Below, piece after piece: positions 8,885 through 40,272 of a DNA stretch of 64,000 nt; the stretch's first letter is position 1, and every line of letters begins with the position of its first letter. Made by a program: the position numbers and the translations under genes. The DNA is from a virus: the IMG/VR virus record IMGVR_UViG_3300044712_001292, positions 1-64,000 of that record, one strand, 5' to 3'. The notes under the pieces were generated by a model. It worked only from the letters and a program-made list of their open reading frames with translations, did not search any database and was not told the origin of the DNA.

Positions 8885-9256
8885 ATGAGCAACGACGCAC
8901 CCAAGACCACCCACTACGAACTGCCTCAGGGCGCTATCGCGATCCTGCGGGAGATTCTGCCCAGCCCGACCTGGTACAAGGAGGACCCCAAGCAGGGTGT
9001 CCTCATCGCCCGTTCCGTCGGCGCGTACGAGGCGCTGCCCGAGATCGACCGTCCTGTCAGCGAGAAGGAAGAGTCGGCCCGTGACTTCGAGAAGCGTGCC
9101 AAGGCGTGGGCCGAGACCGTTCTCGAGTTCGAGTGGACCGAGAAGCAGAAGGACGCCGTCAAGATCTGCGTCCGGCACTACCTCAAGCAGGGTGCCTTCA
9201 CCGTTACCAAGCACACCGTGGCGATGCTGCGGCTGCTGGGACTCGACGAAGAGTAA
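8885..9256 (+). CDS. hypothetical protein (possible fibre assembly chaperone)
   Basis: charged helical protein just before first fibre gene; start at 8885 or 8867. Confidence 0.55.
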   Translation: MSNDAPKTTHYELPQGAIAILREILPSPTWYKEDPKQGVLIARSVGAYEALPEIDRPVSEKEESARDFEKRAKAWAETVLEFEWTEKQKDAVKICVRHYLKQGAFTVTKHTVAMLRLLGLDEE

Positions 9257-28428: not shown

Positions 28429-31417
28429 GCTCTTCAGAACTGTAGCTCCTATCACGCAGGGGGTTCGCGATGTCGCGAACCTGCTCCCTGCGCCGGACTC
28501 TGCTGCACTATCGGATGAGGTGGCTGACCTCGTAGCGGCTCAAGATGAGCTGCAGCGTCAACGTGAAGAATCGACATCACTCGCACGACGCGCCAGTCTG
28601 AACACACTGATCGGTGCAGCCCTAGGCGGTACGCTGGGTGCCGTGAAGGCGTACCCGTTTACACGGCAGTTTGGTAACCCGGCAGTCGTAGGAACAGCAG
28701 CCGGTATCGGTGGAGCGTCGGCGCTGGCGTTCACCCTAGCCAGGCACGCCCTGCGGAAAACGCTCGCACGTCGTGCACAGCAGCGTGTATCCGCCGCGTC
28801 TCCGGCAGCACAGCTGGTAACGAGTCATCCGGAAACGGTTGATAAGGCCCGCGAGTGGGCCTCTGCGCAGTGGTCTCCCTATCTGGGGCTTGAGCTCGGA
28901 GCGCTCGTCGGAGCGGTCGGTCCTGCAGCGTTTACAGCCGCTCAGCCTGACTCGTCGCACGGCTCTACGGCTCTTCGCGCAGGTATCGGCGCTGGCATCG
29001 GCGGTTTGGCTGGATTGGGGATAGGATATCTGTACCGGAAGCGGAAGCAGCGCGAGTTCCTCGAACACGTTGAACGAGAGATGACGGACATGAACTCCCC
29101 TAAGGCTCAGGAAGCAGTCACACAGGCCGCCGTTGAAAAGGATAACGCCCCCTTGAATAAGGTGGCTGAGGAAGGTGGCTCTGAGGAGCGCCGGAGAAAG
29201 CTAATCCGAGCTCTTGGAGCTATCGGCGTTATAGGCGGCGGCGCGTCGGCAGCCGGTGCCTATGCGCTCGTACCGTCGTATCCTAGGGAAAAGATTCAAC
29301 AGTTCTCAGATGTACTGACATCATGGTCCTCCGGAAAGGAGGACCCGCGTTTTATAGGTAAGCAGTACGACATTCTTGGCTCTGAGGCCCTCAAGTCTCT
29401 CCCGTTTTCTGGCGTAGACGCTATTAAGGCGTATAGGTCATCTCCATTTTCTCCGGTACCGTGGTCTCCGAGCAGCGGGCAGCACTACGCTGAGTTCGAA
29501 AAGGAGCCCGTGTTCGCGTATCTACAGATAGCGCGCGAGGCCGGCGATACTGCCGATACATCGGAGGCGGCGAAAACTCTACGGGCTTACATCTCTGCCG
29601 CGCGTTCGACTGCGGAGGGCTACCGCAGGACCGGGGAAATAAGACCGCCAAACTGGTTCGTGCCATCCGTCTTCTCGGGGTCTGATGACACGTCGCAAGA
29701 AGGATTGCGTAGCTACAAAGAGAACCTGCGCTCGGTGTTCGATGAGCTCGAGGCGCATTATAAGTCCACGCGCTCGACTGCTGCACCTTCGAGGACTGCC
29801 CCGCGTCCTACGGTAGACTACCACCACTTTGCCCATCCTAAGGAAGCGTTGCCTGAGCTCACCGCTGGCCTGCGCCAGGTGTCGCAGAAGCTCTTTGGTA
29901 CCGATAACCTCGATACATTAACGCCCGATCAGCAGGGGAGATTGATTCTAGAGGCGGATCAGCACCTTAAGACAGACAATCCGGAGCTATGGTCGAAGAA
30001 ACAGCTATTTGATACCGGAGTCGGCGCGACACGTTACGCGGCTCGCGACTTTTACCCGAGGCAGCTGAACCCAGCAATGCAGGTCCGCGATCTGGCCCTG
30101 TACGGCGGTTTGGCCCTGGCCGGCTTAGGGTCGGCGGCTCTCTTGTATTCGTGGCTCGCATCGCGTAAAGACCCTAAGAAACAGAAGGAACAGGACCACG
30201 TGGATACTACAGACTACGACTTGGGCAGACTCGAAAAGGCGGCTACGACCATGGTCAAGGACGCCGTCGACGGCTTGGCTCGTCGTCCGTTTGTAGCTAC
30301 AAACGCCCCGCTCATGCGCGGTATGGGAGGACCGCCCGACCGTTTCGGCAGCACCGCACTCGGGGCTCGCCGTCTGAAGAAGTGGGCCGAGGATGATCCG
30401 AACGCTCTTGGCGAAGAGGTCGATGATGTCGTTCTTGCAGCGGTACGGGCCTCAGAAGAGCAGCACGGACCCCGGAAGCGCATCGAGGTATCCAATGACG
30501 ATGTGAAGCCTGCTGAGTGCGGGCCCAGCCAGCAGAAGATAGGCGAGTCCAGCACACAGCTTCCGTACAGGAAGCGCGCTGAGGTCGTCGCTATCAAGGA
30601 CGGTAAAATCTACGGTGGTGTCTATAAGGATGGCGGGTTCGGTTTCTTCGGCGGAGGCGTCGACGACGATAACCTCGAGGATGCCGCCGTCCGCGAGTTC
30701 GCCGAAGAGACGGGTCTCTCCATCAAGAACCCGAAGCAGCTGGATGTGAGTCCGGTATCGGAGGACTGGCGTCCGCCGTACAGTTCCGAGAAGATGCGTG
30801 AACGGGCGAAGAACTACCGCGGGTCTACAACCTATTTCGTCGTTGCAGATCTCGACGACAGTTCGCCGACATCGAAGGCGACCGGAGACGATGGGAGAAG
30901 CTCCATCAAGCAACCGCGTCTCTACGATATGAACGAGGTTCAGAAGCTGCTGTCCGTTGATGTACCGGAGCAGTACGTGCCCATCACGGAGGGCCGCCGT
31001 GCCGCTGTGAATGCCGTCCGTACGCTCGGACAGCAGAAGGTCGCTGACGTAGCGCAGCTGCTCCCGCGCAAGGAAGTGCTGTACTTCACTCCGACCGGCA
31101 AGCTCGCCGTACGTCCCAGTACCGGACGGCGTATCGATCTCCCCACGGATATCGAAGGCAAGCCAGTGCCCTACGAGCAGCCTGTCACCGTGCTTCCGGA
31201 GGGCGGTGTGCCTGAGAAGGGCGTTCACGGCTATCAAGTGTCGCTGCAGTCTGCTGAGGGCGACCTACCGGAGGGCTTCGAGGAGGTTGATCCGCAGGAG
31301 GCGCTCAAGAACCTCTATGCCGCCATGGGTAAGCCGGAGAACCGTCAGTATCAGGCCCTCGACCGTGCACGCGCTCGAGCGCTCCTACGCATCATCAAGA
31401 AGCGCCTTCCCGCATGA
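28418..31417 (+). CDS. multidomain protein: glycine-zipper TM segments plus NUDIX hydrolase domain
   Basis: NUDIX box GGGVDDDNLEDAAVREFAEETGL; about six Gly/Ala hydrophobic segments. Confidence 0.8.
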   Translation: MARELFRTVAPITQGVRDVANLLPAPDSAALSDEVADLVAAQDELQRQREESTSLARRASLNTLIGAALGGTLGAVKAYPFTRQFGNPAVVGTAAGIGGASALAFTLARHALRKTLARRAQQRVSAASPAAQLVTSHPETVDKAREWASAQWSPYLGLELGALVGAVGPAAFTAAQPDSSHGSTALRAGIGAGIGGLAGLGIGYLYRKRKQREFLEHVEREMTDMNSPKAQEAVTQAAVEKDNAPLNKVAEEGGSEERRRKLIRALGAIGVIGGGASAAGAYALVPSYPREKIQQFSDVLTSWSSGKEDPRFIGKQYDILGSEALKSLPFSGVDAIKAYRSSPFSPVPWSPSSGQHYAEFEKEPVFAYLQIAREAGDTADTSEAAKTLRAYISAARSTAEGYRRTGEIRPPNWFVPSVFSGSDDTSQEGLRSYKENLRSVFDELEAHYKSTRSTAAPSRTAPRPTVDYHHFAHPKEALPELTAGLRQVSQKLFGTDNLDTLTPDQQGRLILEADQHLKTDNPELWSKKQLFDTGVGATRYAARDFYPRQLNPAMQVRDLALYGGLALAGLGSAALLYSWLASRKDPKKQKEQDHVDTTDYDLGRLEKAATTMVKDAVDGLARRPFVATNAPLMRGMGGPPDRFGSTALGARRLKKWAEDDPNALGEEVDDVVLAAVRASEEQHGPRKRIEVSNDDVKPAECGPSQQKIGESSTQLPYRKRAEVVAIKDGKIYGGVYKDGGFGFFGGGVDDDNLEDAAVREFAEETGLSIKNPKQLDVSPVSEDWRPPYSSEKMRERAKNYRGSTTYFVVADLDDSSPTSKATGDDGRSSIKQPRLYDMNEVQKLLSVDVPEQYVPITEGRRAAVNAVRTLGQQKVADVAQLLPRKEVLYFTPTGKLAVRPSTGRRIDLPTDIEGKPVPYEQPVTVLPEGGVPEKGVHGYQVSLQSAEGDLPEGFEEVDPQEALKNLYAAMGKPENRQYQALDRARARALLRIIKKRLPA

Positions 31418-32208
31418 TCCGACAGGGGAAGTTCGGTCCCATCCAAGTCGTACAGACCGACGAGGTGCAACAGGTGCGCCTGAATGGTCAGGTACAGGGA
31501 TCGGTGTTTCTCAGCCCGACAGCCCGTTCCGTCGGTATCGACGTTGACGGTCCTGGACCTGTCTCCGCCTCAGCATACAGCTACGGCTGGCTTATCGCGG
31601 GGGTGCACCGTCCCTATGGCTCTGGTGTCATGGTCGGTCTCGGCTCTGGCGTCGGAGTTGTACAGCTCCTCTACAACTTCCCGCACATCGATCTGACGGT
31701 TATCGAGATTGACCCCGTCATGGTCGAAGTCGCGCTGCGGTCCCTGCCGCTTCTCGATCACTATATGAACGAAGGTCGGCTGAACATCATCATAGCGGAC
31801 GCCGCGGAGGCGCTGGATACATCTGACCGGTATACCTTCGGCTGTGCTGATGCTTACGACGGAGGCGCGTCCTTTCAGCTGTTGACCGGGTACCTGACGA
31901 AACTGTGTCAGGTGTGCGACGACGTCTATATCAACGCGATCGACAGTCCGCTCGGTCGGCATATCAGTGCTATATCGGCGACGTGCTTCGATGCCGGGAA
32001 TCCACTGCTGTACGGCATGCGGGCTGTCGCTCCGGAAGTCGCCCACGTAACGGCACCAAAGGCGAACTATGTGCTGACATCCGCAGATGTGCAGTTACCC
32101 GATCTGGACGCGTTCATTCCGTTCGCAGCGTTGACGCAGCCTGCGGCGGACTACGGCCGTCTCTGCTGGAATCTCATGATCTCGGACGTTCTTGATGTAG
32201 GTGGTTGA
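31414..32208 (+). CDS. spermidine-synthase-like SAM-dependent methyltransferase
   Basis: VGLGSG, VIEIDP, IIADA and DAYDG motifs. Confidence 0.8.
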   Translation: MIRQGKFGPIQVVQTDEVQQVRLNGQVQGSVFLSPTARSVGIDVDGPGPVSASAYSYGWLIAGVHRPYGSGVMVGLGSGVGVVQLLYNFPHIDLTVIEIDPVMVEVALRSLPLLDHYMNEGRLNIIIADAAEALDTSDRYTFGCADAYDGGASFQLLTGYLTKLCQVCDDVYINAIDSPLGRHISAISATCFDAGNPLLYGMRAVAPEVAHVTAPKANYVLTSADVQLPDLDAFIPFAALTQPAADYGRLCWNLMISDVLDVGG

Positions 32209-32231
32209 CATTCGCACGAGCGACATAGCAT
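32205..32231 (+). promoter_or_regulatory. promoter candidate for tRNA-like element and pth2
   Basis: TTGACA-N15-TAGCAT. Confidence 0.4.
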
Positions 32232-32242
32232 CCTGCATCGAT

Positions 32243-32320
32243 GTCCTCGTAGCATTATGGAATGCACCTCGCCTACTACCGGCAGCACGGAAGCGGGTTC
32301 GATTCCCGCCGGGGACGCCA
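32243..32320 (+). tRNA. atypical tRNA-like element, irregular anticodon arm (loop TACTACC, nominal CTA)
   Basis: acceptor GTCCTCG/CGGGGAC, D-stem GCATT/AATGC, GGTTCGATTCC T-arm, encoded CCA. Confidence 0.65.
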
Positions 32321-32389
32321 AGTCGCAGCTGCTACTTGCGTATTACGCAGAACTCTGTAAGAGGTCGGACATGCGGATTCACGAGGTAG

Positions 32390-32707
32390 TCTAACGAACA
32401 AGCGCCACGACTGTATGTCGTGGTTCGAACGGATCTGCCGCTGGGCCTACAAGTAGCCCAGGCATGCCACGCATCTCACGAAGCGGGTCATAGATTCGGA
32501 GCAGCCAAGGGCTGCTTTCTCATAGTCTGCATGGTACCCGGTGAGGCGGAACTCACCACAGTAGCCCACGAGCTGAACGCCCGTGGGCTTCCCTGTTTCG
32601 TCTTTCACGAGCCAGATCTCAACGGCCAGGCAACCGCTCTGGCCGCGCTTGTCGACCACTCCGGTCGCAAGCACTTCAAACGCCTACCCCTTTGGAGGCA
32701 CTCATGA
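32390..32707 (+). CDS. Pth2-family peptidyl-tRNA hydrolase (start uncertain; first in-frame GTG at 32420)
   Basis: LYVVVRTDL...QVAQACHA...FHEPDLNGQATALA...LPL. Confidence 0.8.
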   Translation, partial: SNEQAPRLYVVVRTDLPLGLQVAQACHASHEAGHRFGAAKGCFLIVCMVPGEAELTTVAHELNARGLPCFVFHEPDLNGQATALAALVDHSGRKHFKRLPLWRHS

Positions 32708-33018
32708 CACATACCCTAACCACCGAAGAGACCGCTGTCCGGGCCAGGATCGCGGAGATTCGAGCAGAACTCAAAGACCTGGCCGCGAAGCGGAAGCTGA
32801 TCCTCGGCGTCTACCGCATGCCACACGGTACGCCGGAACATAAACAGGCCATGGTTAACGTCCGCCAGGCCCTGGGTATTCCGGAGGACTATATGGTGAA
32901 GTGGGCTCCGCACGCCATCCCGAACCGCTTCCTGTGGAGAGCGGAGACCCACCAGAAACATCTGCAGCTGGCTGAGCTGACGGGGAAGCCTCATGTCCGA
33001 GAGCCATTGCCAGCCTGA
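32704..33018 (+). CDS. hypothetical protein
   Basis: GGAGG RBS, ATGA overlap with pth2 stop. Confidence 0.7.
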   Translation: MTHTLTTEETAVRARIAEIRAELKDLAAKRKLILGVYRMPHGTPEHKQAMVNVRQALGIPEDYMVKWAPHAIPNRFLWRAETHQKHLQLAELTGKPHVREPLPA

Positions 33019-33023
33019 GGCAT

Positions 33024-33236
33024 ATGGATAAGGTGCGGTCTACGGAGAAAGCCGTGAACCGCACCGACCTCGACCAGATCGAAGCCATTGACCGCTGTAA
33101 CGCCTTCGAGCTGGGGTTCCTCAAGGCAGCCCATGACGCTGGCTTGTCGGAGGCTGAATATCGCAAAATGCGGAAGGCGGCGGAAGACGCGACGGAATTG
33201 GCGAAGCAGTACGGGCTGAAGGTCCCCCAAAAATAA
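33024..33236 (+). CDS. small AFxxGFxxAAxDxGL-family protein
   Basis: GAGG RBS; paralog of 60523 and 61254 ORFs. Confidence 0.75.
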   Translation: MDKVRSTEKAVNRTDLDQIEAIDRCNAFELGFLKAAHDAGLSEAEYRKMRKAAEDATELAKQYGLKVPQK

Positions 33237-33239
33237 TAC

Positions 33240-33267
33240 TTGCTATCACTACGACCGTAGCTATAAG
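33240..33267 (+). promoter_or_regulatory. promoter candidate for leader 1 / tRNA array 1
   Basis: TTGCTA-N16-TATAAG. Confidence 0.45.
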
Positions 33268-33281
33268 GCCACCAGCTTTCC

Positions 33282-33413
33282 ATGAGACTCATACCCACCG
33301 TCAAAGCCACGACCTGGCCCACCGCTCAGCGGATGCAGCCGCAGGGGTGCTTTGTACGCACAGGTTCCGAGGCGAAGAATGATCACATTCCAGCATCGGG
33401 GTTCTCAGGGTAG
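33282..33413 (+). CDS. leader peptide 1 (43 aa) of tRNA array 1 attenuator
   Basis: MRLIPTVKATTWPTAQRMQPQGCFVRTGSEAKNDHIPASGFSG*; 19 of 20 amino acids, no Tyr. Confidence 0.75.
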   Translation: MRLIPTVKATTWPTAQRMQPQGCFVRTGSEAKNDHIPASGFSG

Positions 33414-33452
33414 ACCAGGCTGACCATAGCCAGACTCCCGAGAACCCCGGAT
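33395..33452 (+). promoter_or_regulatory. antiterminator of attenuator 1
   Basis: ATCGGGGTTCTCAGGG (33395-33410) pairs with CCCGAGAACCCCGGAT (33437-33452), the terminator 5' arm. Confidence 0.8.
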
Positions 33453-33475
33453 CCCAGATCCGGGGTTCTTTCTTT
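33441..33475 (+). terminator. intrinsic terminator (attenuator 1)
   Basis: 13-bp perfect stem AGAACCCCGGATC/GATCCGGGGTTCT followed by TTCTTT. Confidence 0.9.
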
Positions 33476-33577
33476 CACAAGTTCTCACACTGCGTCGGGT
33501 TCGCCTTCGGGGTTCCTCATAAGCTCGGCTTAGCACGCAGACGGATAGTTTAACAAATCTATAGCGTATACAGTTGT

Positions 33578-33652
33578 GGGTGCCTAGCTCAGCGGTAGAG
33601 CACTTCGTCGACATCGAATAGGTCGCAGGTTCGATCCCTGCGGTACCCACCA
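33578..33652 (+). tRNA. trnV: tRNA-Val(GAC)
   Basis: cloverleaf, loop TCGACAT, CCA. Confidence 0.9.
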
Positions 33653-33699
33653 TGACGGGGCTGATAACATCGGCCCGCCGGATCCGTAACCGGCCGTAC

Positions 33700-33776
33700 T
33701 GCGGGATGCCTGGAGGTAGTTCCAGATCGGTCTCATAAGCCGACATAGGCGTGTGCAAGTCACGCTCCCGCAACCA
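33700..33776 (+). tRNA. trnM: tRNA-Met(CAT)
   Basis: loop CTCATAA, acceptor TGCGGGA/TCCCGCA, CCA; atypical T-loop. Confidence 0.8.
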
Positions 33777-33920
33777 AGGTCCTCGCACCCGCCAGTGAGG
33801 CGTAAGCGATACAGGGGTCCGCTGTATCGGCCACGTTTTTCCGTCCACACCACCCGCCAGAGCACTGGCAACTAGCCAAGCCGTTGTCGAAGGACCGGAG
33901 GAGGGGTGGTGTGCGGTTCA

Positions 33921-33997
33921 TCCCCTCGTAGACCTAGGTATCGAGGTACAGGTCTGTGGCACCTGGAAGTCTGGTGAAAGTCCAGAACGGGGGACCA
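33921..33997 (+). tRNA. trnH: tRNA-His(GTG), atypical
   Basis: CAGGT-CTGTGGC-ACCTG; bulged acceptor stem; T-loop TGAAAGT. Confidence 0.7.
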
Positions 33998-34105
33998 GTT
34001 TCAGCGCAATCTCAGCGCTTCTCGATCGGCGTGAGCTGTCGAGGACCTGCTCCGGGGAAGAGGGAGTGCTCTACGCCTCAGATAAGAACGAGGCGAGCGA
34101 TAGCT

Positions 34106-34180
34106 GGCTCTCTAGCATAAATAGTAATGCACCCGCCTGAAGAGCGGACAAACTCGGCGCGATACCGAGGGGAGCCACCA
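34106..34180 (+). tRNA. trnF: tRNA-Phe(GAA)
   Basis: loop CTGAAGA, CCA. Confidence 0.85.
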
Positions 34181-34203
34181 ATAGTGTCCACGTGGACACA
34201 GAT

Positions 34204-34277
34204 GGACCGTTAGGTTAAAAGTAAACCATCAGATTTTCACTCTGAAATCGACGGAGCGTTACCGTCACGGTCTACCA
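34204..34277 (+). tRNA. trnE: tRNA-Glu(TTC)
   Basis: TCAGA-TTTTCAC-TCTGA, CCA. Confidence 0.85.
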
Positions 34278-34280
34278 GAT

Positions 34281-34354
34281 GCACCTTTCTGTCAGTAGTA
34301 GGCACTCTCCCTCTCACGGAGAAAACGTCGGTGCGATCCCGACAAGGTGTACCA
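34281..34354 (+). tRNA. trnE: tRNA-Glu(CTC)
   Basis: TCTCC-CTCTCAC-GGAGA, CCA. Confidence 0.85.
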
Positions 34355-34358
34355 GAAC

Positions 34359-34434
34359 GGTCCCAGGGGCAGCCAGTTTAAGCCGACACCCTGTCACGGT
34401 GTAGTACCGAGTGCGACTCTCGGTGGGATCGCCA
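34359..34434 (+). tRNA. trnD: tRNA-Asp(GTC)
   Basis: ACACC-CTGTCAC-GGTGT, G73, CCA. Confidence 0.85.
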
Positions 34435-34438
34435 GAAT

Positions 34439-34513
34439 GCGCTAGCCACCGGTACAGTGGGGCTGGACCTGATAAGTCTGGACAGCACAGTTCGACTCTG
34501 TGATAGCGCACCA
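34439..34513 (+). tRNA. trnI: tRNA-Ile(GAT)
   Basis: loop CTGATAA, TTCGACT T-loop, CCA. Confidence 0.75.
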
Positions 34514-34517
34514 GCAT

Positions 34518-34602
34518 TGGCAGGACGGATAACGGTTTTCCAGCACGCTGTTAACGTGCCGCACCGAAAGGTCACCTGGGGGTTCGAATCCCTCCCTGCC
34601 AG
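34518..34602 (+). tRNA. trnN: tRNA-Asn(GTT) with long variable arm
   Basis: GCACG-CTGTTAA-CGTGC; extra ACC-GAAA-GGT hairpin; no encoded CCA. Confidence 0.8.
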
Positions 34603-34607
34603 ATTAT

Positions 34608-34677
34608 GGGCTGTACAGTCATGGCGACGAAGAACCTCCGCAAGGTTCTTGATACGGTTCGATTCCGTAACGGTCCA
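34608..34677 (+). tRNA. trnA: tRNA-Ala(CGC)
   Basis: loop TCCGCAA, G3:U70, A73; no encoded CCA. Confidence 0.75.
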
Positions 34678-34682
34678 AGAAT

Positions 34683-34757
34683 GGGCACGTAACTCAGCGC
34701 TAGAGTACCTGATTTGCACTCAGGAGGTCGCAGGTTGAAATCCTGTCGTGTCCACCA
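34683..34757 (+). tRNA. trnA: tRNA-Ala(TGC)
   Basis: loop TTTGCAC, G3:U70, CCA. Confidence 0.9.
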
Positions 34758-34809
34758 TCTTGATCCTCGGAAGCCGGAGTCCGAGGTACCAGAATCTAGA
34801 CCGGCGTGT

Positions 34810-34883
34810 GGGCCTGTCGTTCATCAGTAGGACATCTGCATGGCATGCAGAAGGGCGGCGTGCGATTCGCCGCAGGTCCACCA
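34810..34883 (+). tRNA. trnA: tRNA-Ala(GGC)
   Basis: loop ATGGCAT, G3:U70, CCA. Confidence 0.85.
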
Positions 34884-34886
34884 CAT

Positions 34887-34960
34887 ACGTACGTCAGTCC
34901 AGCGGCTGCATCGGTTTCCAAAACCGGTTGAGGTTGGGGCAGCACCAACCGTACGTGCCA
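34887..34960 (+). tRNA. trnW: tRNA-Trp(CCA)
   Basis: loop TTCCAAA, acceptor ACGTACG/CGTACGT, G73, CCA. Confidence 0.8.
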
Positions 34961-35113
34961 CTCGTGGATGTCCACCTCCAGAGGGACGCCGATGGAGGAC
35001 CACGAAACGCCGCGCTCACGTCGGGGGCGCACTATAGCCGGTAGGTTACCGAGGGCTAGTGAGGGCCGTATTCTCCGTCAGGAGTATGCAGTGGCCACGA
35101 CAGGACACCTTAC

Positions 35114-35189
35114 TGGCGCGTAGCTCAATTGGCAGAGCAGCAGTTTCTGACACTGCCGGTTCTTCGTTCGACTCGAAGCGCGCCAACCA
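35114..35189 (+). tRNA. trnQ: tRNA-Gln(CTG)
   Basis: GCAGT-TTCTGAC-ACTGC, CCA. Confidence 0.9.
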
Positions 35190-35194
35190 TTCGA

Positions 35195-35270
35195 TACTCC
35201 GTGGTGTAGCGGCGCTGCACGGCTGGCTTTGACCCAGAAGGTGGAGGCTCGACCCCTCCCGGAGTAACCA
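35195..35270 (+). tRNA. trnQ: tRNA-Gln(TTG)
   Basis: loop CTTTGAC, CCA. Confidence 0.85.
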
Positions 35271-35273
35271 CAT

Positions 35274-35350
35274 CAGTACGTAGCTCAGCTTGGTAGAGCA
35301 CTTGCCTTGGGCGCAAGAAGTCGGAGGTTCAAATCCTCTCGTACTGACCA
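35274..35350 (+). tRNA. trnP: tRNA-Pro(TGG)
   Basis: CTTGC-CTTGGGC-GCAAG, canonical arms, CCA. Confidence 0.9.
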
Positions 35351-35351
35351 C

Positions 35352-35425
35352 GAGCACAGAGCCAGACGGCTAGGCAGTAGCCTGCAAAGCTACCTAACTG
35401 CGTTCGACTCGCAGTGTGCTCTCCA
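35352..35425 (+). tRNA. trnC: tRNA-Cys(GCA)
   Basis: loop CTGCAAA, U73, CCA. Confidence 0.9.
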
Positions 35426-35428
35426 GAT

Positions 35429-35504
35429 GCCGACTTAGTGTAACTGGAAACACGCAACCTTTCCAAGGTTGAGTCGCTCGGATCGTACCCGGCAGTCGGC
35501 TCCA
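35429..35504 (+). tRNA. trnG: tRNA-Gly(TCC)
   Basis: CAACC-TTTCCAA-GGTTG, U73, CCA. Confidence 0.8.
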
Positions 35505-35507
35505 TTC

Positions 35508-35583
35508 GTGGGTTTAGCTCAGCAGCTAGAGCGATTCATTGCCAATGAATAGGCGGCAGGGGCAGCACCTGTAACCCACACCA
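35508..35583 (+). tRNA. trnG: tRNA-Gly(GCC)
   Basis: ATTCA-TTGCCAA-TGAAT, CCA. Confidence 0.85.
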
Positions 35584-35586
35584 CGC

Positions 35587-35661
35587 GCGGGTATATCATA
35601 CCAGCTAATGAGCCTGCCTTCCAAGCAGGAGAACACGGGGCAGCACCGTGTACCCGCACCA
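35587..35661 (+). tRNA. trnG: tRNA-Gly(TCC), second copy
   Basis: CCTGC-CTTCCAA-GCAGG, CCA. Confidence 0.85.
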
Positions 35662-35663
35662 AT

Positions 35664-35741
35664 GCCCGGATAGCTCAATTGGATCAGAGCGCTTCGCTAC
35701 GGACGAAGAGGTTGCAGGATCGTGCCCTGCTCTGGGTGCCA
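35664..35741 (+). tRNA. trnR: tRNA-Arg(ACG)
   Basis: CTTCG-CTACGGA-CGAAG, CCA. Confidence 0.9.
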
Positions 35742-35772
35742 CAGTAGCGTATAGAGGGAGGTCAACTCACAT

Positions 35773-35848
35773 GCCCGACTAGCTCATCTGGAAGAGCGTC
35801 CCGGTCCTAACGGGAAGGTGCCCCGTCCGAGTCGGGGGTCGGGTGCCA
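35773..35848 (+). tRNA. trnR: tRNA-Arg(CCT)
   Basis: TCCCG-GTCCTAA-CGGGA, CCA. Confidence 0.85.
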
Positions 35849-35849
35849 T

Positions 35850-35927
35850 GCGATCATCGCCTAACTGGATATGGCACTGCCCTCCGAAGGCAGACTAATG
35901 CAGGTTCGAGTCCTGCTGATCGTGCCA
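35850..35927 (+). tRNA. trnR: tRNA-Arg(CCG)
   Basis: CTGCC-CTCCGAA-GGCAG, CCA. Confidence 0.9.
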
Positions 35928-35928
35928 T

Positions 35929-35997
35929 GCCGGACGTCCAAGACACGCAGGCCTTCTAAGCCAGCTCAGCTGGGGCAAGCACCCAGGTCCGGTGCCA
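35929..35997 (+). tRNA. trnR: tRNA-Arg(TCT), 69 nt with truncated D-arm
   Basis: loop CTTCTAA, acceptor GCCGGAC/GTCCGGT, CCA. Confidence 0.65.
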
Positions 35998-36088
35998 TAT
36001 CATCGGCTCATGCAGTCGCTACGGGCAGGGATCGGGGCGTCCGGTAAGACTCCCTTGACGATATGGGCGGACGGTATATTAAGCGTTC

Positions 36089-36316
36089 ATGCACACTGCT
36101 ATAGACGCCAGACTCGCACTTCTGTGGACATGTCAGGCATGCAAAGCTGTGAATTGGTATACTACATCGCGGTCGAAGGAGGCGGAGGAGGCGAGGTTGG
36201 AGGCGGCTAAGGCGATGGAGTGTGATCCAGAAGACCTGTCTGTTATACCTGAGATCCTCTGCTGCCGTACCTGTGAAGAACCGCACCGGTTGCCGGATGA
36301 GATCGGTGCATCCTAA
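36089..36316 (+). CDS. small zinc-ribbon-like protein inside tRNA array
   Basis: WTCQAC...CRTC; upstream TTGACG...TATATT. Confidence 0.6.
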   Translation: MHTAIDARLALLWTCQACKAVNWYTTSRSKEAEEARLEAAKAMECDPEDLSVIPEILCCRTCEEPHRLPDEIGAS

Positions 36317-36323
36317 ATCGTAT

Positions 36324-36398
36324 GCCGTTAACGCCTAGATAGCGAGGCACCGTTTTCGTAAAGCGGACAGAGGGGCGCACGTCCTCTTGACGGCACCA
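36324..36398 (+). tRNA. trnT: tRNA-Thr(CGT)
   Basis: loop TTCGTAA, CCA. Confidence 0.85.
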
Positions 36399-36467
36399 GT
36401 ATAGAATAAAGGGCAAGAGTGTGCTAAACGCGCTAGAGAAGGTCCAAGTCACTCGCTTACCACATGT

Positions 36468-36541
36468 GCTCCGTTAAGTAAACGGTATACTAAAGATTTT
36501 GTAAATCTTAATTCTGTGTTCGACTCACAGACGGAGCACCA
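36468..36541 (+). tRNA. trnT: tRNA-Thr(TGT)
   Basis: AAGAT-TTTGTAA-ATCTT, CCA. Confidence 0.85.
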
Positions 36542-36549
36542 ATAAATAC

Positions 36550-36623
36550 GCCGTTGTAAGATAGTGGCAGTCTACCTCCCTGGTATGGAGGAAGCGGGTT
36601 TTCGATTAACCCCGACGGCACCA
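36550..36623 (+). tRNA. trnT: tRNA-Thr(GGT)
   Basis: CCTCC-CTGGTAT-GGAGG, CCA. Confidence 0.85.
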
Positions 36624-36625
36624 AC

Positions 36626-36698
36626 GCATCGGAGGCGGAACAGGCTCCGCACTCAGCTTTTAACTGAGGGTAAGCTGGTTCGAGTCCAGCCCGATGCA
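36626..36698 (+). tRNA. trnK: tRNA-Lys(TTT)
   Basis: CTCAG-CTTTTAA-CTGAG; no encoded CCA. Confidence 0.85.
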
Positions 36699-36703
36699 CA
36701 GAC

Positions 36704-36777
36704 GCACCCTGAGCAGGCTGGCATTGCACTCGGTTCTTACCCGAGGGGAGAAGGTTCGATTCCTTTAGGGTGCACCA
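36704..36777 (+). tRNA. trnK: tRNA-Lys(CTT)
   Basis: CTCGG-TTCTTAC-CCGAG, CCA. Confidence 0.85.
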
Positions 36778-36782
36778 TCCAT

Positions 36783-36858
36783 CTGGCCATCGCCTAACCT
36801 GGCAAGGCACTGCGTTCGGGTCGCAGGGATGCTGGTTCAAATCCAGCTGGCTAGACCA
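36783..36858 (+). tRNA. trnP: tRNA-Pro(CGG)
   Basis: CTGCG-TTCGGGT-CGCAG, CCA. Confidence 0.9.
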
Positions 36859-36934
36859 TGTTAGTCCATCACTCAGTTAGCAGAACGATGTCACGAGGTA
36901 GAAGCGATCATCGAGGTCAAACCGATGTATGTCA

Positions 36935-37009
36935 GGGAGTTTATATCAGTGGCAGATAGCTCGGCCTACACCCGAGATGTGGGTGGTTCGATTCCACCAA
37001 CTCCCACCA
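36935..37009 (+). tRNA. trnV: tRNA-Val(TAC)
   Basis: CTCGG-CCTACAC-CCGAG, CCA. Confidence 0.9.
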
Positions 37010-37063
37010 CTTCTATGACGGCGTGTCCTCCGTGGAGTGATTCAGCCAGTCACCTACCATTAT

Positions 37064-37140
37064 CGGCCGTGGGAGTGCACGCGCCTCACTCGTCTTATGA
37101 ACGAGCCAAGACTGGGCCGAGCACCCGGTACGGCCGACCA
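37064..37140 (+). tRNA. trnI: tRNA-Ile(TAT), atypical
   Basis: CTCGT-CTTATGA-ACGAG; acceptor CGGCCGT/ACGGCCG, A73, CCA; T-loop CCGAGCA. Confidence 0.7.
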
Positions 37141-37161
37141 GCTGTATACGCAGGAGTCATC

Positions 37162-37710
37162 ATGCGCTGTCTCGTCCTTAACCAGGATATGTCGTTTCTT
37201 CATATGACCACAGACGCCTTCGACGGCATCAAGCTGATGACGAAGGGGCGTGTACAGCCTTTGGCGACCTATGATAAGCGTCTGCGTTCAGAGAAGCACG
37301 AGTTCGTCATCCCGGCTGTAGTCCAACTGAAGGGGTACGTACACGTCGGCAAGCGTAGGCACGGGTTTACTCAGGCATCGCACCAGAACGTATTCGTTCG
37401 AGATGGCGAGCGGTGTGCGTACTGTGGGTGCAAGCTGACGCTGCGGAGTTGTACGAAGGATCACGTCGTACCGCGTTCTCGTGGTGGCAAAGACACGCTG
37501 TCGAATGTCGTCGCTTGCTGCAGGTCATGCAACGAGGAGAAGGCCGACAGGACGCTCGCGGAGTCGGGCATGAAGCTCCGCGAGGGCATAGAGCTGCGTC
37601 AGCTCACTGACGATGAGAAGCTGTCCGTCCTCCTGAAGACGGGGGCAGGTGCTGCAGAGCGGAAAGCATGGATCGGCTTTCTGAAGGCTACGGGGTTGAC
37701 ACTGTTCTGA
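37162..37710 (+). CDS. HNH endonuclease (McrA-like)
   Basis: LVLN N-terminus; RDGERCAYCG...TKDHVVPRSRGG...NVVACCRSCNEEK; AGGAG RBS; start re-called from 36925. Confidence 0.92.
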   Translation: MRCLVLNQDMSFLHMTTDAFDGIKLMTKGRVQPLATYDKRLRSEKHEFVIPAVVQLKGYVHVGKRRHGFTQASHQNVFVRDGERCAYCGCKLTLRSCTKDHVVPRSRGGKDTLSNVVACCRSCNEEKADRTLAESGMKLREGIELRQLTDDEKLSVLLKTGAGAAERKAWIGFLKATGLTLF

Positions 37711-37722
37711 CATCTCTATGAT
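37696..37722 (+). promoter_or_regulatory. promoter candidate for leader 2 / tRNA array 2
   Basis: TTGACA-N15-TATGAT. Confidence 0.45.
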
Positions 37723-37743
37723 GACGCTTATCCGAGTCATACT

Positions 37744-37821
37744 GTGAATACCGGCCTATCATCGCTGCTGTCGTCTTACCTCAGTTCCTATAGGAACACC
37801 GGGGACGGTGGCGCTTTGTAA
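37744..37821 (+). CDS. leader peptide 2 (25 aa, Leu/Ser/Tyr-rich) of tRNA array 2 attenuator
   Basis: GTG start; MNTGLSSLLSSYLSSYRNTGDGGAL*; 12 consecutive L/S/Y codons at 37756-37791. Confidence 0.8.
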   Translation: MNTGLSSLLSSYLSSYRNTGDGGAL

Positions 37822-37856
37822 CCCGAACATGCTCGGAACGCGCCCTCGAACCCCGG
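37799..37856 (+). promoter_or_regulatory. antiterminator of attenuator 2
   Basis: CCGGGGACGGTGGCGC (37799-37814) pairs with GCGCCCTCGAACCCCGG (37840-37856). Confidence 0.75.
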
Positions 37857-37883
37857 ATCCACAAGGTCCGGGGTTTTTCTTTT
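37848..37883 (+). terminator. intrinsic terminator (attenuator 2)
   Basis: AACCCCGGATC/GGTCCGGGGTT stem followed by TTTCTTTT. Confidence 0.9.
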
Positions 37884-37910
37884 ACAACGATATATGGTGG
37901 TTGCGATGAC

Positions 37911-37995
37911 GGGGGCGTGGCTTCGTTGGGAACTGGCACACCTTGCCGGCTTAGAACCGGTAGCTTTGAGAGTTCGAGTCTCTCCGCCCCTACCA
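37911..37995 (+). tRNA. trnL: tRNA-Leu(TAG)
   Basis: GCCGG-CTTAGAA-CCGGT, enlarged D region, short variable loop, CCA. Confidence 0.8.
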
Positions 37996-37998
37996 CAT

Positions 37999-38073
37999 AC
38001 CCGTGTAGCCCAATTGGCAGGAGGCGCTAGTGTGAGGCACTAGACAGTGCTGGTTCGAATCCAGTCGCGGGTA
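37999..38073 (+). tRNA. trnL: tRNA-Leu(GAG)
   Basis: CTAGT-GTGAGGC-ACTAG, short variable loop; no encoded CCA. Confidence 0.85.
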
Positions 38074-38079
38074 ATATAT

Positions 38080-38173
38080 GCACATCGTTCCGTACGGTAG
38101 TCTGTAAAACTATTGCGCACAAAAGCATGTACGGCGTACGCGCGGTTGGGTTAAACTCCCTCGATGTGCACCA
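38080..38173 (+). tRNA. trnY: tRNA-Tyr(GTA), atypical (no canonical D-arm)
   Basis: GTAGT-CTGTAAA-ACTAT; acceptor GCACATCG/CGATGTGC, A73, CCA. Confidence 0.7.
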
Positions 38174-38178
38174 GATAA

Positions 38179-38255
38179 CGGCGTATGATGCAACTGGCGA
38201 CATACCTGCCTCAAAATCAGGGTCTATGCGGGTTCGACTCCCGCTGCGCCGACCA
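38179..38255 (+). tRNA. trnL: tRNA-Leu(CAA)
   Basis: loop CTCAAAA, short variable loop, CCA. Confidence 0.8.
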
Positions 38256-38258
38256 CAA

Positions 38259-38347
38259 CCGGTAGTGGCGAAATCGGCTGAGACGCGACAGGCTTAAACC
38301 CTGCTACACGAGAAACATTGTGGGTTCGAGTCCCACCTACCGGACCA
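38259..38347 (+). tRNA. trnL: tRNA-Leu(TAA)
   Basis: loop CTTAAAC, long variable arm, CCA. Confidence 0.9.
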
Positions 38348-38350
38348 TTT

Positions 38351-38441
38351 GGAAGGTATTGCGACTTTAGTAAGCGACCCGAGTTCGAACCTCGGTGACA
38401 CGTCTGACGGCGTGAGGGTGCGATCCCCTGACCTTCCTCCA
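38351..38441 (+). tRNA. trnS: tRNA-Ser(CGA)
   Basis: CCGAG-TTCGAAC-CTCGG, long variable arm, CCA. Confidence 0.8.
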
Positions 38442-38444
38442 TAT

Positions 38445-38531
38445 GGAATATGAACCGACCAGGGTGTCGGCTCCGCTTGGAAAGCGGCTGGGCGCTTCGG
38501 CGCTGTGTTTCGAGTACACCGTATTCCGCCA
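38445..38531 (+). tRNA. trnS: tRNA-Ser(GGA)
   Basis: loop TTGGAAA, long variable arm, G73, CCA. Confidence 0.85.
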
Positions 38532-38533
38532 TT

Positions 38534-38619
38534 GGAACGTAAATCAGCATGGTGCTGAACCTCGGTGCTAACGAGTGTGGCCCTACGGGGCTGAGGGTCG
38601 GGTCCTCTGCGTTCCGCCA
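38534..38619 (+). tRNA. trnS: tRNA-Ser(GCT)
   Basis: loop GTGCTAA, long variable arm, G73, CCA. Confidence 0.85.
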
Positions 38620-38624
38620 CATAT

Positions 38625-38711
38625 GGATAGTGAACTGCTCGGGTGAGCAGCACCGGCTTGAAACCGGCAGGGCCCTACGGGGCTGGGGATCGAGACCTCC
38701 GCTATCCGCCA
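38625..38711 (+). tRNA. trnS: tRNA-Ser(TGA)
   Basis: loop CTTGAAA, long variable arm, G73, CCA. Confidence 0.85.
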
Positions 38712-39530
38712 TCACATATAGTCAGGTGGTTCGTCGATACCTTTCCATACACGTATCGATGCGTCGAAAAGGTACGGGAATATCGCCTCGAAAGCGTAGA
38801 TAGGCAGAAAGAGGAACTGATCGTGTTTCGCCCGACCCGTCGGGCTGTTATGCCCATGCTGGATGATATGTTCATAACCACTTACGAGCATCAGCCTGTG
38901 GACGTGCTGCCAGAACGCCTTCGATCTCGATCGAATAGCTGTGCGTGACGCAGCGCAGATGATGGCGAGACACGGCTGTATGATTGGAGGCATAGGTGTT
39001 TCGAACAGAGAGCACCAGACGGAGCTCAGACACCTGGCATACGACTCTTTGTAGCACTCGAGGATGACTTTGTCCCCGTCCTGCCGGTGGGTATGAACGA
39101 GATATCCATGCCTCGACATGGACGGTTTCCACGCTCCGAGGTTCATAAAGTCCAGTGGCGCCTGCACGGCTTGACGTACATCGTCGATGAAGCGAGGGGC
39201 GTGGTCGAATGGGAAGTGTGCGAAGAGCGTGTACTCCGGCAGGGCATCGTAGTGTTCGGCAATGTATCTGCAGTAGACTGTACCAGCGTACGCGCGCCTG
39301 TCGTAGATGGTATGTACATGCCGAAGAGGGAGGCAGCCACCGTCGCTGTAGCAGACGGTCCTACCGTTGATCAGGCGGAGCCAATCCCACGTATTGGACT
39401 CTTTGACGGCATAGTTCGCACACAGCGTCCAGTTCTCTGGCAAGTCGATGCGGTCTGTGTCGAGGTCGAAATCCCAGCTTCCGCGGTGGCCGTAAATAGA
39501 CTTCTTCGTAAGACGGAGGGGCGTCGGCAT
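38712..39530 (-). CDS. DUF3431-like protein (possible glycosyltransferase-related fold)
   Basis: YCRYIAEHYDALPEYTLFAH.PFDH and IRSRSKAFW motifs; start re-called at MPTPLR to avoid overlap. Confidence 0.65.
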   Translation of the reverse strand: MPTPLRLTKKSIYGHRGSWDFDLDTDRIDLPENWTLCANYAVKESNTWDWLRLINGRTVCYSDGGCLPLRHVHTIYDRRAYAGTVYCRYIAEHYDALPEYTLFAHFPFDHAPRFIDDVRQAVQAPLDFMNLGAWKPSMSRHGYLVHTHRQDGDKVILECYKESYARCLSSVWCSLFETPMPPIIQPCLAIICAASRTAIRSRSKAFWQHVHRLMLVSGYEHIIQHGHNSPTGRAKHDQFLFLPIYAFEAIFPYLFDASIRVWKGIDEPPDYM

Positions 39531-39618
39531 GCAGGAAACTACGTACGGTCCGTGATTCGTCAAGGTCTCTCGAAAAGACCACTTGCAGACCCCGGTGGCC
39601 TGCATAGTGTTCTCCGCT

Positions 39619-40272
39619 ATGTCAATAACGGTCCTCCGTAGCCCTGTCATCCCTCGGAACATGCAAGCGACACGGATGTCCGGCAGCCCCGTAGAAGACG
39701 CCTCGGTGATTCGTAAAGACGCGCCCATACCTGTCTTGATGCAGGAACACGACGGGTCGTTCCGAAACGCAGGCACGACGGTAGCCGCCGACCTCCCAGA
39801 GCCTAAGCTGACCGACCCGCTTCCACAGGATGCTGGTTCGACGAGAGCGAAGCCGGAGTTCGAAGTACCAGTAGGGCAGGCTATGGCGCAAGCCTCCGGA
39901 CTGGCGGTACCGGCGCCTGCGCAGCCAGCGCAGTTTAAGCCTTCTGTGTCCAATTATACGCCCCCTCCGACCCCAGCACCGCCAGCTAAACGCGTTCGGG
40001 TACGGATGTCGAATCCGGGCATGGGCAGGGTAACGGTCGGTGTTCGCGCGGTCAGTATCTCGGAAACCGTCGTCATCCTCGCTTACCCGCAGGACGCCGA
40101 CAACATCGTTGAACCCCCTGTCTGTGGTGGAGATAACCCCATCCGTGTCGAATTCGAGGGGAAGAAGTACACGTGCGTATTCGGTGGATGGACAACAGAA
40201 CTCGAGGGGATGTTCCTGGTCGTCCTCTTACGCACCGGAGAAGACGAGGACCCAAGCCCTTCTAAGGCTTGA
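39619..40272 (+). CDS. hypothetical protein
   Basis: Pro-rich linker then beta-rich C-terminal domain; start uncertain. Confidence 0.65.
   Translation: MSITVLRSPVIPRNMQATRMSGSPVEDASVIRKDAPIPVLMQEHDGSFRNAGTTVAADLPEPKLTDPLPQDAGSTRAKPEFEVPVGQAMAQASGLAVPAPAQPAQFKPSVSNYTPPPTPAPPAKRVRVRMSNPGMGRVTVGVRAVSISETVVILAYPQDADNIVEPPVCGGDNPIRVEFEGKKYTCVFGGWTTELEGMFLVVLLRTGEDEDPSPSKA

Follow-up and report, generated by a model that had tools for sequence, protein, structure and literature searches.

The DNA analysed here is a 64,000-nucleotide (nt) window comprising the first 64 kb of the 103-kb IMG/VR record IMGVR_UViG_3300044712_001292, which derives from an uncultured large phage. The record has a G+C content of 60%, is about 53% complete as estimated with CheckV, and has linear ends. 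All of its tRNA genes lie on the plus strand between positions 32243 and 38711, where they form two blocks. The first block, array 1 (33578-37009), encodes tRNAs for Val, Met, His, Phe, Glu, Asp, Asn, Ala, Gln, Pro, Cys, Gly, Arg, Thr and Lys, includes no gene for Leu, Ser or Tyr, and is closed by an HNH endonuclease gene (37162-37710, plus strand; Pfam HNH_5/HNH/HNH_4). The second block, array 2 (37911-38711, plus strand), contains four Leu genes, four Ser genes and a candidate tRNA-Tyr. In order on the plus strand these are Leu-TAG (37911-37992), Leu-GAG (37998-38074), the candidate Tyr-GTA (38080-38175), Leu-CAA (38179-38255), Leu-TAA (38259-38347), Ser-CGA (38351-38441), Ser-GGA (38445-38531), Ser-GCT (38534-38619) and Ser-TGA (38624-38710). 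The array 2 genes were assigned with tRNA search programs and by direct reading of the anticodon loops; in the Tyr candidate, the acceptor stem is 8 bp long, the anticodon loop is CUGUAAA and the sequence ends in ACCA. In the 200 nt between the HNH stop codon and array 2 lies the element that is the main subject of this report, termed leader 2, which consists of a short open reading frame (ORF) followed by a terminator hairpin.

The leader 2 ORF, MNTGLSSLLSSYLSSYRNTGDGGAL (37744-37821, plus strand), was identified from an ORF listing and by direct reading. It starts with GTG and extends for 25 codons to a TAA stop at 37819-37821. Codons 5-16 (37756-37791) are CTA TCA TCG CTG CTG TCG TCT TAC CTC AGT TCC TAT, that is, 12 consecutive Leu/Ser/Tyr codons of which 10 are distinct, and the final sense codon is TTG. 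A first-pass annotation of this DNA had pointed to this run, to the terminal TTG and to a GTGA overlap at the start codon (discussed below), and all three are present in the sequence as claimed. The combined Leu, Ser and Tyr fraction is 0.196 in six-frame translation and 0.191 in long ORFs, and the number of Leu/Ser/Tyr runs of at least 12 codons expected by chance in the six frames of a 103-kb record is about 5e-4. The longest such run in 100 simulated third-order Markov genomes was 10 codons, and no second run of at least nine was found across the six frames of the record. Runs drawn from other sets of three residues do exist in the genome, mostly within real proteins; the notable point is the Leu/Ser/Tyr set in particular, at this position ahead of array 2. 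The annotation had further matched the codons of the run to downstream anticodons, and the Leu TAG, GAG and CAA and the Ser TGA, CGA, GGA and GCT anticodons that it named are indeed present in array 2, whereas Tyr GTA is represented by the candidate only. Its proposal that synonymous diversity reflects the sensing of individual isoacceptors fared less well. The 10 distinct codons exceed the 7.5 expected from phage codon usage (P=0.04), but the corresponding values for the related leaders described below are P ~0.15 each, and codon-level (isoacceptor) sampling by leader 2 is thus suggestive, not established.

Downstream of the run, the sequence can form two alternative structures. An intrinsic terminator (37848-37883, plus strand) is composed of a 12-bp GC-rich stem (37848-37859 with 37865-37876), a CACAA loop and the T tract TTTTTCTTTT at 37874-37883, with a calculated hairpin energy of -20.7 kcal/mol. 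The last codons of the ORF contain the putative 5' strand of an antiterminator, segment 2 (37796-37814), which includes CCGGGG (37799-37804, separated from the end of the run by 7 nt), ACGGT and GGCGC (37810-37814). Its predicted partner, segment 3 (37839-37857), includes GCGCC (37840-37844) and CCCCGG (37851-37856) and overlaps the terminator 5' arm. The segment 2:3 duplex has a predicted energy of -26.9 kcal/mol, which is beyond chance relative to both shuffled sequences (P=0.0005) and genomic windows (P=0.002); the strand at 37799-37814 that had been proposed as an antiterminator is therefore significantly complementary to 37840-37856. When folding was repeated with a mask for a ribosome whose A-site lay no further than 37783, the unmasked RNA as far as the terminator loop adopted the antiterminator, at -29 to -34 kcal/mol. 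With the ribosome placed at the stop codon (37819-37821), segment 2 was covered and the terminator alone formed. A small hairpin, GUUCC-UAUA-GGAAC (37784-37797, plus strand), also folds between the run and segment 2.

The T tract ends about 27 nt before the first tRNA gene, Leu-TAG. No canonical sigma-70 -35/-10 pair was seen by eye between the T tract and array 2, and a promoter scan of positions 31000-40000 returned no plus-strand site. Since no promoter was recognised in this gap of about 27 nt, array 2 is apparently reached by read-through of the terminator. The terminator itself belongs to a family, AACCCCGG...CCGGGGTT, with two copies in the 103 kb (37848-37883 and 33440-33476), each of which follows a leader ORF.

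Together with the co-variation described below, these observations indicate that leader 2 is likely to be a ribosome-mediated (leader-peptide) transcription attenuator that acts on a phage tRNA operon and senses the decoding of Leu, Ser and Tyr codons. The in-sequence basis consists of the anatomy of the element, its statistics, in silico alternative pairings, and conservation with co-variation; judged from sequence, the attenuator reading is well supported by the statistics, by the alternative structures and above all by the co-variation of leaders with tRNA genes in three phages. From the same features we infer translation of the leader, stalling, stalling-dependent read-through, the transcription start and the identity of the RNA polymerase. 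In the proposed model, transcription would enter at a promoter-like site just upstream of the leader, with read-through out of array 1 and the HNH gene as a possible second source, and a ribosome would translate the 25-codon ORF. If Leu, Ser and Tyr codons were decoded quickly, the ribosome would reach the last codons and the TAA and mask 37796-37814, the hairpin at 37848-37876 would form, and transcription would stop before the tRNA genes. If the charged tRNAs were scarce, decoding would be slow at any of the 12 codons and the ribosome would stall within approximately 37756-37785; segment 2 would then be free to pair with 37839-37857, the terminator 5' arm would be sequestered, and RNA polymerase would read through into the Leu, Tyr and Ser tRNA genes. 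The new tRNAs would restore decoding, amounting to negative feedback.

A sister element, leader 1 (33240-33480, plus strand), is located ahead of array 1. It comprises a promoter-like pair, TTGCTA/TATAAG, a 43-codon ORF (33282-33413), a putative antiterminator strand (33396-33410) and a terminator (33440-33476), all on the plus strand, and 33399-33408 can form a perfect 10-bp pairing with 33441-33450. The ORF contains all 17 amino acids other than Leu, Ser and Tyr, which is true of 0.23% of 43-amino-acid windows, or of 0.02% if no more than four Leu/Ser/Tyr residues are also required. Ile and Trp codons are among those in leader 1, yet Ile and Trp tRNA genes were undetected in array 1 of the window. 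No further convincing leader was found in the gaps within array 1 (33650-34110, 34880-35116 and 35925-36470). A 65-codon ORF at 34840-35037 contains RGCPPPEGRR ahead of a Gln/Gln/Pro/Cys/Gly/.../Arg sub-block (p=6e-4, against a background of 0.36) and is not followed by a terminator; it is probably a chance occurrence in a GC-rich frame.

This lineage is sparsely represented in the databases. We searched for relatives with the portal protein in IMG/VR and in JGI metagenomes, and a separate scan was made with an alignment of HNH homologs. The portal search yielded 16 loci at 50-69% identity, none of which has tRNA genes within 10 kb, and among the five whole records searched only one contained tRNAs. 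This record, IMGVR_UViG_3300044712_000998 (191.5 kb, hereafter G001), encodes a portal protein 63% identical, and tRNAs 57-78% identical, to those of the window. The HNH scan identified IMGVR_UViG_3300005617_000004 (109.5 kb, hereafter L045), whose HNH protein is 45% identical to that of the window and is likewise encoded inside array 1. Pattern scans of IMG/VR with the terminator, with the antiterminator plus terminator, with the tRNA D-arm of the lineage, and with the terminator plus the conserved box described below returned only unrelated actinophage-type terminators or G001 and L045 themselves, and blastn against INPHARED gave matches at the tRNA level only.

In both of these distant relatives, leaders were found whose composition mirrors the tRNA genes that follow. 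G001 has two tRNA clusters on the plus strand. One is preceded by a GTG-initiated ORF, MTKISLVRSYLSSLLTQ, and by two tandem terminators that end 10 nt short of the first tRNA gene; the cluster encodes Leu-CAG, a candidate Tyr-GTA, Leu-CAA, Leu-GAG and Ser-TGA. The second leader, MTASTPNPTNTQQPPTRLAAVLGV (beginning MTASTPNPTNTQQPPT), has 12 of 12 consecutive codons for Thr, Pro, Asn or Gln (binomial p=4e-9); a terminator comes next, ahead of Thr-TGT, Thr-CGT, Pro-TGG, Asn-GTT, Gln-CTG and Gln-TTG. The four Thr codons of its run, three ACG and one ACA, are those of both encoded isoacceptors; ACC makes up 50% of the Thr codons of G001. L045, like the window, has two leaders. Its leader 2, MNALLLQSSQSYLLSLSQRVGFGATLR (core LLLQSSQSYLLSLSQ), has 15 of 15 codons for Leu, Ser, Tyr or Gln (p=1e-10) and is followed by an antiterminator strand, a terminator, and tRNA genes for Leu (three), Ser, Tyr, Ser, Gln and Gln. 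Its leader 1, an ORF of 42 codons (5217-5345, within an element at 5180-5410), is followed by a terminator and array 1, and contains all 16 of the amino acids served by that array and neither Gln nor Tyr. The first-pass annotation had named loss of Leu/Ser/Tyr enrichment from homologous leaders as evidence against an attenuator that mirrors its downstream tRNAs. In G001 and L045, the enrichment is kept and the composition co-varies with tRNA content.

The distribution of Gln is particularly informative. In the window, the Gln tRNA genes are in array 1, and leader 1 has three Gln codons and leader 2 none; in L045, the Gln tRNA genes are in array 2, and leader 1 has no Gln codons and leader 2 has three. 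This swap indicates that leader composition follows the tRNA genes and not a conserved peptide. The distinction bears on whether the ORF might instead encode a functional small peptide, such as an amphipathic or membrane peptide or a sequence-specific ribosome-arrest peptide of the SecM, TnaC or Erm type, with its adjacency to tRNA genes being incidental. A heptad-like hydrophobic/polar pattern in LSSLLSSYLSSY and the retention of an ORF in the relatives would fit such a peptide. The peptides, though, range from 17 to 27 amino acids and cannot be aligned between relatives; composition alone is conserved, and it shifts with the tRNA set, to Thr/Pro/Asn/Gln in G001 and with Gln added in L045. 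We give a functional peptide very little credence. We also rejected the idea that leader 2 is the decayed tail of the HNH gene, with which it is in frame after the TGA at 37708-37710. HNH homologs are numerous in metagenomes (182 amino acids, 59-85% identity, and 75-85% for P0002-P0008) and have a strictly conserved C-terminus, 20 of them all ending at ...GLTLF, and in L045 the leader does not adjoin the HNH gene.

The structural features of the proposed attenuator are conserved alongside composition. A hairpin with a T tract follows all six leaders of the lineage, each of which also retains a start codon, an open frame and a stop beside segment 2, and for five of the six the ORF 3' end is more complementary to the terminator 5' arm than chance would predict, and for the sixth marginally so. 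In addition, a box, ACAAC-GA-TATA-TG-GTGG, follows the T tract of leader 2 (37884-37900, plus strand) and recurs after both L045 terminators (8941-8960 and 5410-5428), giving the consensus A(C/T)AAC-NN-TATA-NN-GTGG between the T tract and the first tRNA in three attenuators. Possible roles for the box are as a site of processing or of pausing, or as a promoter element that escapes recognition. We considered whether the ORF senses decoding with an output other than termination, such as access for Rho, RNase processing or stability of a tRNA precursor, or the uncovering of a downstream promoter or processing box. The conserved box would suit such an output, as would the lack of significant pairing between the codon run and segment 2 (see below) and a mini-ORF in an unrelated phage, L148 (IMGVR_UViG_3300014205_000182, minus strand, approximately 8025-8095). 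This mini-ORF, MYTLSSHSSSSRSSS, contains six different Ser codons and ends 21 nt upstream of paired Ser-TGA and Ser-GCT tRNA genes. It lacks a T-tract terminator and may represent a related sensor whose output differs. Against this, canonical hairpins with T tracts come after all six leaders, the ORF 3' end is complementary to the 5' arm of the terminator to a degree far above chance, and the terminator family is confined to sites after leaders, all of which makes a non-termination output unlikely for leader 2.

To obtain a control for leader/tRNA matching, the best upstream ORF window of each tRNA cluster in all fetched loci (n=69) was scored for the amino acids of that cluster. Scores of p<=1e-5 were reached by 4 of the 69 cognate regions, compared with 4 of 2530 pairings in which a region was scored against a disjoint amino-acid set. 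The tRNA arrays of Rhodobacter phage RcXuper and Streptomyces phage SparkleGoddess, which served as negative controls, had no matched leaders. Two high-scoring candidates were inspected and discarded. An apparent Ala/Leu/Trp/Tyr leader in L112 and L064 proved to be the C-terminus of a longer ORF, which we take to encode a transglycosylase (Rpf)-like domain, and an ORF in L071 had a strong Shine-Dalgarno sequence and no terminator. A Phe-rich leader ahead of E. coli tRNA-Phe genes was looked for at pheV of MG1655 and was not borne out.

These data also address the possibility that the hairpin is an ordinary terminator of the array 1/HNH unit, that the ORF arose by chance in a pyrimidine-rich spacer, and that array 2 is transcribed from a phage-specific promoter at or after the terminator. 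The leader has no Shine-Dalgarno sequence, the conserved box holds a -10-like TATA, and other three-residue low-complexity runs occur in the genome, as this explanation would allow. Nevertheless, the run is unique and matches an independently defined set of downstream tRNAs. Matched leaders occur five more times in the three phages, with composition that tracks the tRNAs through the Gln swap, which is a strong argument against chance, and the cognate/non-cognate control is in agreement. Moreover, L045 leader 2 directly follows a tRNA-Lys gene and has its own TTGACA, 16 nt, TACAAG, 9 nt and ATG, so it is not the 3' untranslated region of a gene. A chance ORF thus appears highly unlikely.

A comparable arrangement of start signals was found at other leaders. 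In the window, a promoter-like pair, CTGACA (37707-37712) and TATCCG (37729-37734, plus strand), has a 16-nt spacer and lies 9 nt from the end of the -10-like element to the leader 2 GTG; direct reading also revealed an alternative pair, TTGACA (37696-37701) and TATGAT (37717-37722, plus strand), spaced by 15 nt. Four leaders (leader 2 of the window, both G001 leaders and L045 leader 2) share a -35-like element of the form (T/C)TGAC(A/G) or TAGACA, 15-16 nt, a -10-like TAYNNK, 9 nt and the start codon. The distance from the -10-like element to the start is 7 nt in L045 leader 1 and 14 nt in leader 1 of the window. This motif alignment suggests that the leaders are carried on leaderless or near-leaderless transcripts made by host RNA polymerase. 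It also bears on the GTGA overlap, in which the leader start codon overlaps the TGA of a 9-codon ORF, MMTLIRVIL (37718-37747, plus strand), that starts ATGATG and was suggested in the earlier annotation to couple translation of the two. Such coupling is disfavoured, because the 9-codon ORF would sit upstream of, and be excluded from, a near-leaderless transcript and because it has no counterpart in L045, where that frame lacks a start codon. The 9-codon ORF is probably incidental, although coupling could occur on RNAs that read through from array 1 and the HNH gene.

Control of a terminator by tRNA need not involve translation. T-boxes bind uncharged tRNA directly, without any need for translation, and are found mainly at synthetase and amino-acid genes. 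Leader 2 resembles them in that the choice between terminator and antiterminator would be set by the state of specific tRNAs, and a T-box-like RNA that senses tRNA directly would likewise gate a terminator by tRNA charging. An Rfam cmscan of positions 31000-40000 with E up to 1 returned only tRNA-clan and weak chance matches, with no T-box and no known leader family (Leu_leader, Thr_leader, His_leader, Trp_leader or Phe-type leaders). Furthermore, a start, an open frame and a stop beside segment 2 are conserved in the six leaders, and twelve codons cannot be a single specifier. We regard a translation-independent sensor as extremely improbable.

Several observations do weigh against the attenuator reading of leader 2. 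Neither ARAGORN nor Rfam called the Tyr-GTA element (38080-38175), which is counted as a candidate only. No Shine-Dalgarno sequence was found upstream of the leader 2 GTG or in any of the six leaders, although AGGA-type sites precede many other genes of the phage. Base pairing between the codon run and segment 2 (1:2) appears in the unmasked minimum free energy fold, but its duplex energy is at chance level (P=0.09 and 0.27), which in these models would leave the untranslated state undefined. The terminator is thermodynamically preferred once the RNA is fully transcribed, and because of this preference in the full-length RNA the switch must be kinetic. The box at 37884-37900 could be an unrecognised promoter. 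The record may encode a multisubunit RNA polymerase of its own, whose response to intrinsic terminators may differ from the one assumed. Finally, the window, G001 and L045 belong to one broad lineage, and their leaders are not fully independent examples.

Additional features of the region were noted. The Leu-GAG (37998-38074) and Leu-CAA (38179-38255) genes are 77 nt each and are without the long variable arm expected of bacterial tRNA-Leu; short 'Leu' tRNAs of this kind are also encoded by G001 and by Streptomyces phages (84% identity over 62 nt). One HNH family is found in or beside the tRNA arrays of several phage contigs (window 37162-37710, L045:7001-7534 and L071:7001-7501). A DUF3431-family ORF (38712-39953, minus strand) converges on the end of array 2, and the portal gene starts at 40309; the portal neighbourhoods of the relatives are without tRNAs, indicating that the position of the array is not conserved. 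A tRNA that ARAGORN labelled '???' (window 32243-32320) aligns with amber-suppressor-like tRNA(CTA) genes of L045 and G001 in which the CTA anticodon is invariant, and this gene adjoins a PTH2-like peptidyl-tRNA hydrolase gene in all three phages. The tRNA(CTA)/PTH2 loci considered were window 32243-32320 with 32420-32704, L045:13076-13686 and L023:2348-2772. The stop codon is TAG in leader 1 of the window and in the G001 Leu/Ser/Tyr leader, where suppression could in principle take ribosomes through the terminator.

Leader-peptide attenuation is textbook knowledge for amino-acid operons. Enterobacterial examples include trpL, hisL, leuL and pheL as well as multivalent leaders, with thrL sensing Thr and Ile, and the ilvGMEDA leader sensing Ile, Val and Leu. 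The pheL mechanism has been summarised (PMC3082878). Leader 2 resembles leaders of the thr and ilv type in that regulatory codons are clustered in a short ORF, in that the stop lies beside an antiterminator strand in competition with an intrinsic terminator, and in the proposed sensing of several amino acids by one leader. It differs from the enterobacterial leaders in that the regulated genes are those of tRNAs, in a phage, and not of biosynthetic enzymes or synthetases, and in that the sensed set corresponds to the amino acids of the downstream tRNAs, with a sister leader that samples 16-17 amino acids. Further differences are the absence of a Shine-Dalgarno sequence, the non-significant 1:2 pairing and the lack of a match to any Rfam leader family.

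The closest match to the proposed mode of initiation is the polycysteine leaderless short ORFs of mycobacteria, which are described as attenuating operonic gene expression (bioRxiv 10.1101/834739). As described there, these also have a short ORF that appears to start at or near the transcript 5' end, are enriched in codons for the sensed residue and control a downstream operon (10.1101/834739). They differ from leader 2 in sensing cysteine for Cys-related genes on a bacterial chromosome, and the leaderless start of leader 2 is a prediction from motif alignment. For tRNA arrays, the closest functional analogue is the trn operon of Anabaena sp. PCC 7120, a long tRNA array that is induced by translational stress and controlled by promoter repeats and a repressor (PMC8421152; PMC10272220). 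It resembles the array proposed here in being an accessory tRNA array that is silent until translation is impaired; the terms attenuat-, leader and terminator are absent from the main text of PMC8421152. Full-text literature searches turned up no account of tRNA genes controlled by a leader peptide. The mechanism is of a known kind; what is new, relative to the literature searched, is its target, tRNA genes in a virus, together with the 'sampler' design.

The two leaders raise the possibility, which we advance tentatively and consider somewhat less probable than not, that this phage carries two independently gated tRNA regulons. Leader 1 would sample the amino acids of array 1, and leader 2 would sample Leu, Ser and Tyr via many synonymous, mostly rare codons. 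The pair would thereby act as a codon-resolved gauge of decoding that switches on the affected tRNA set after host tRNAs are depleted or cleaved, for example by anticodon nucleases, and switches it off on recovery, as a self-regulating counter-defence. If so, tRNA genes would be a new class of target for attenuation. The sensor and the product would be the same molecules, with tRNAs made upon slow decoding of their own codons. Such control would account for the way in which large phages set the dose of their tRNA arrays, would tie phage tRNAs into a feedback loop with host defences that target tRNA, and would provide a compact and portable set of amino-acid- or codon-specific sensors. The natural Gln swap resembles a genetic experiment performed by evolution itself, and it makes the idea directly testable.

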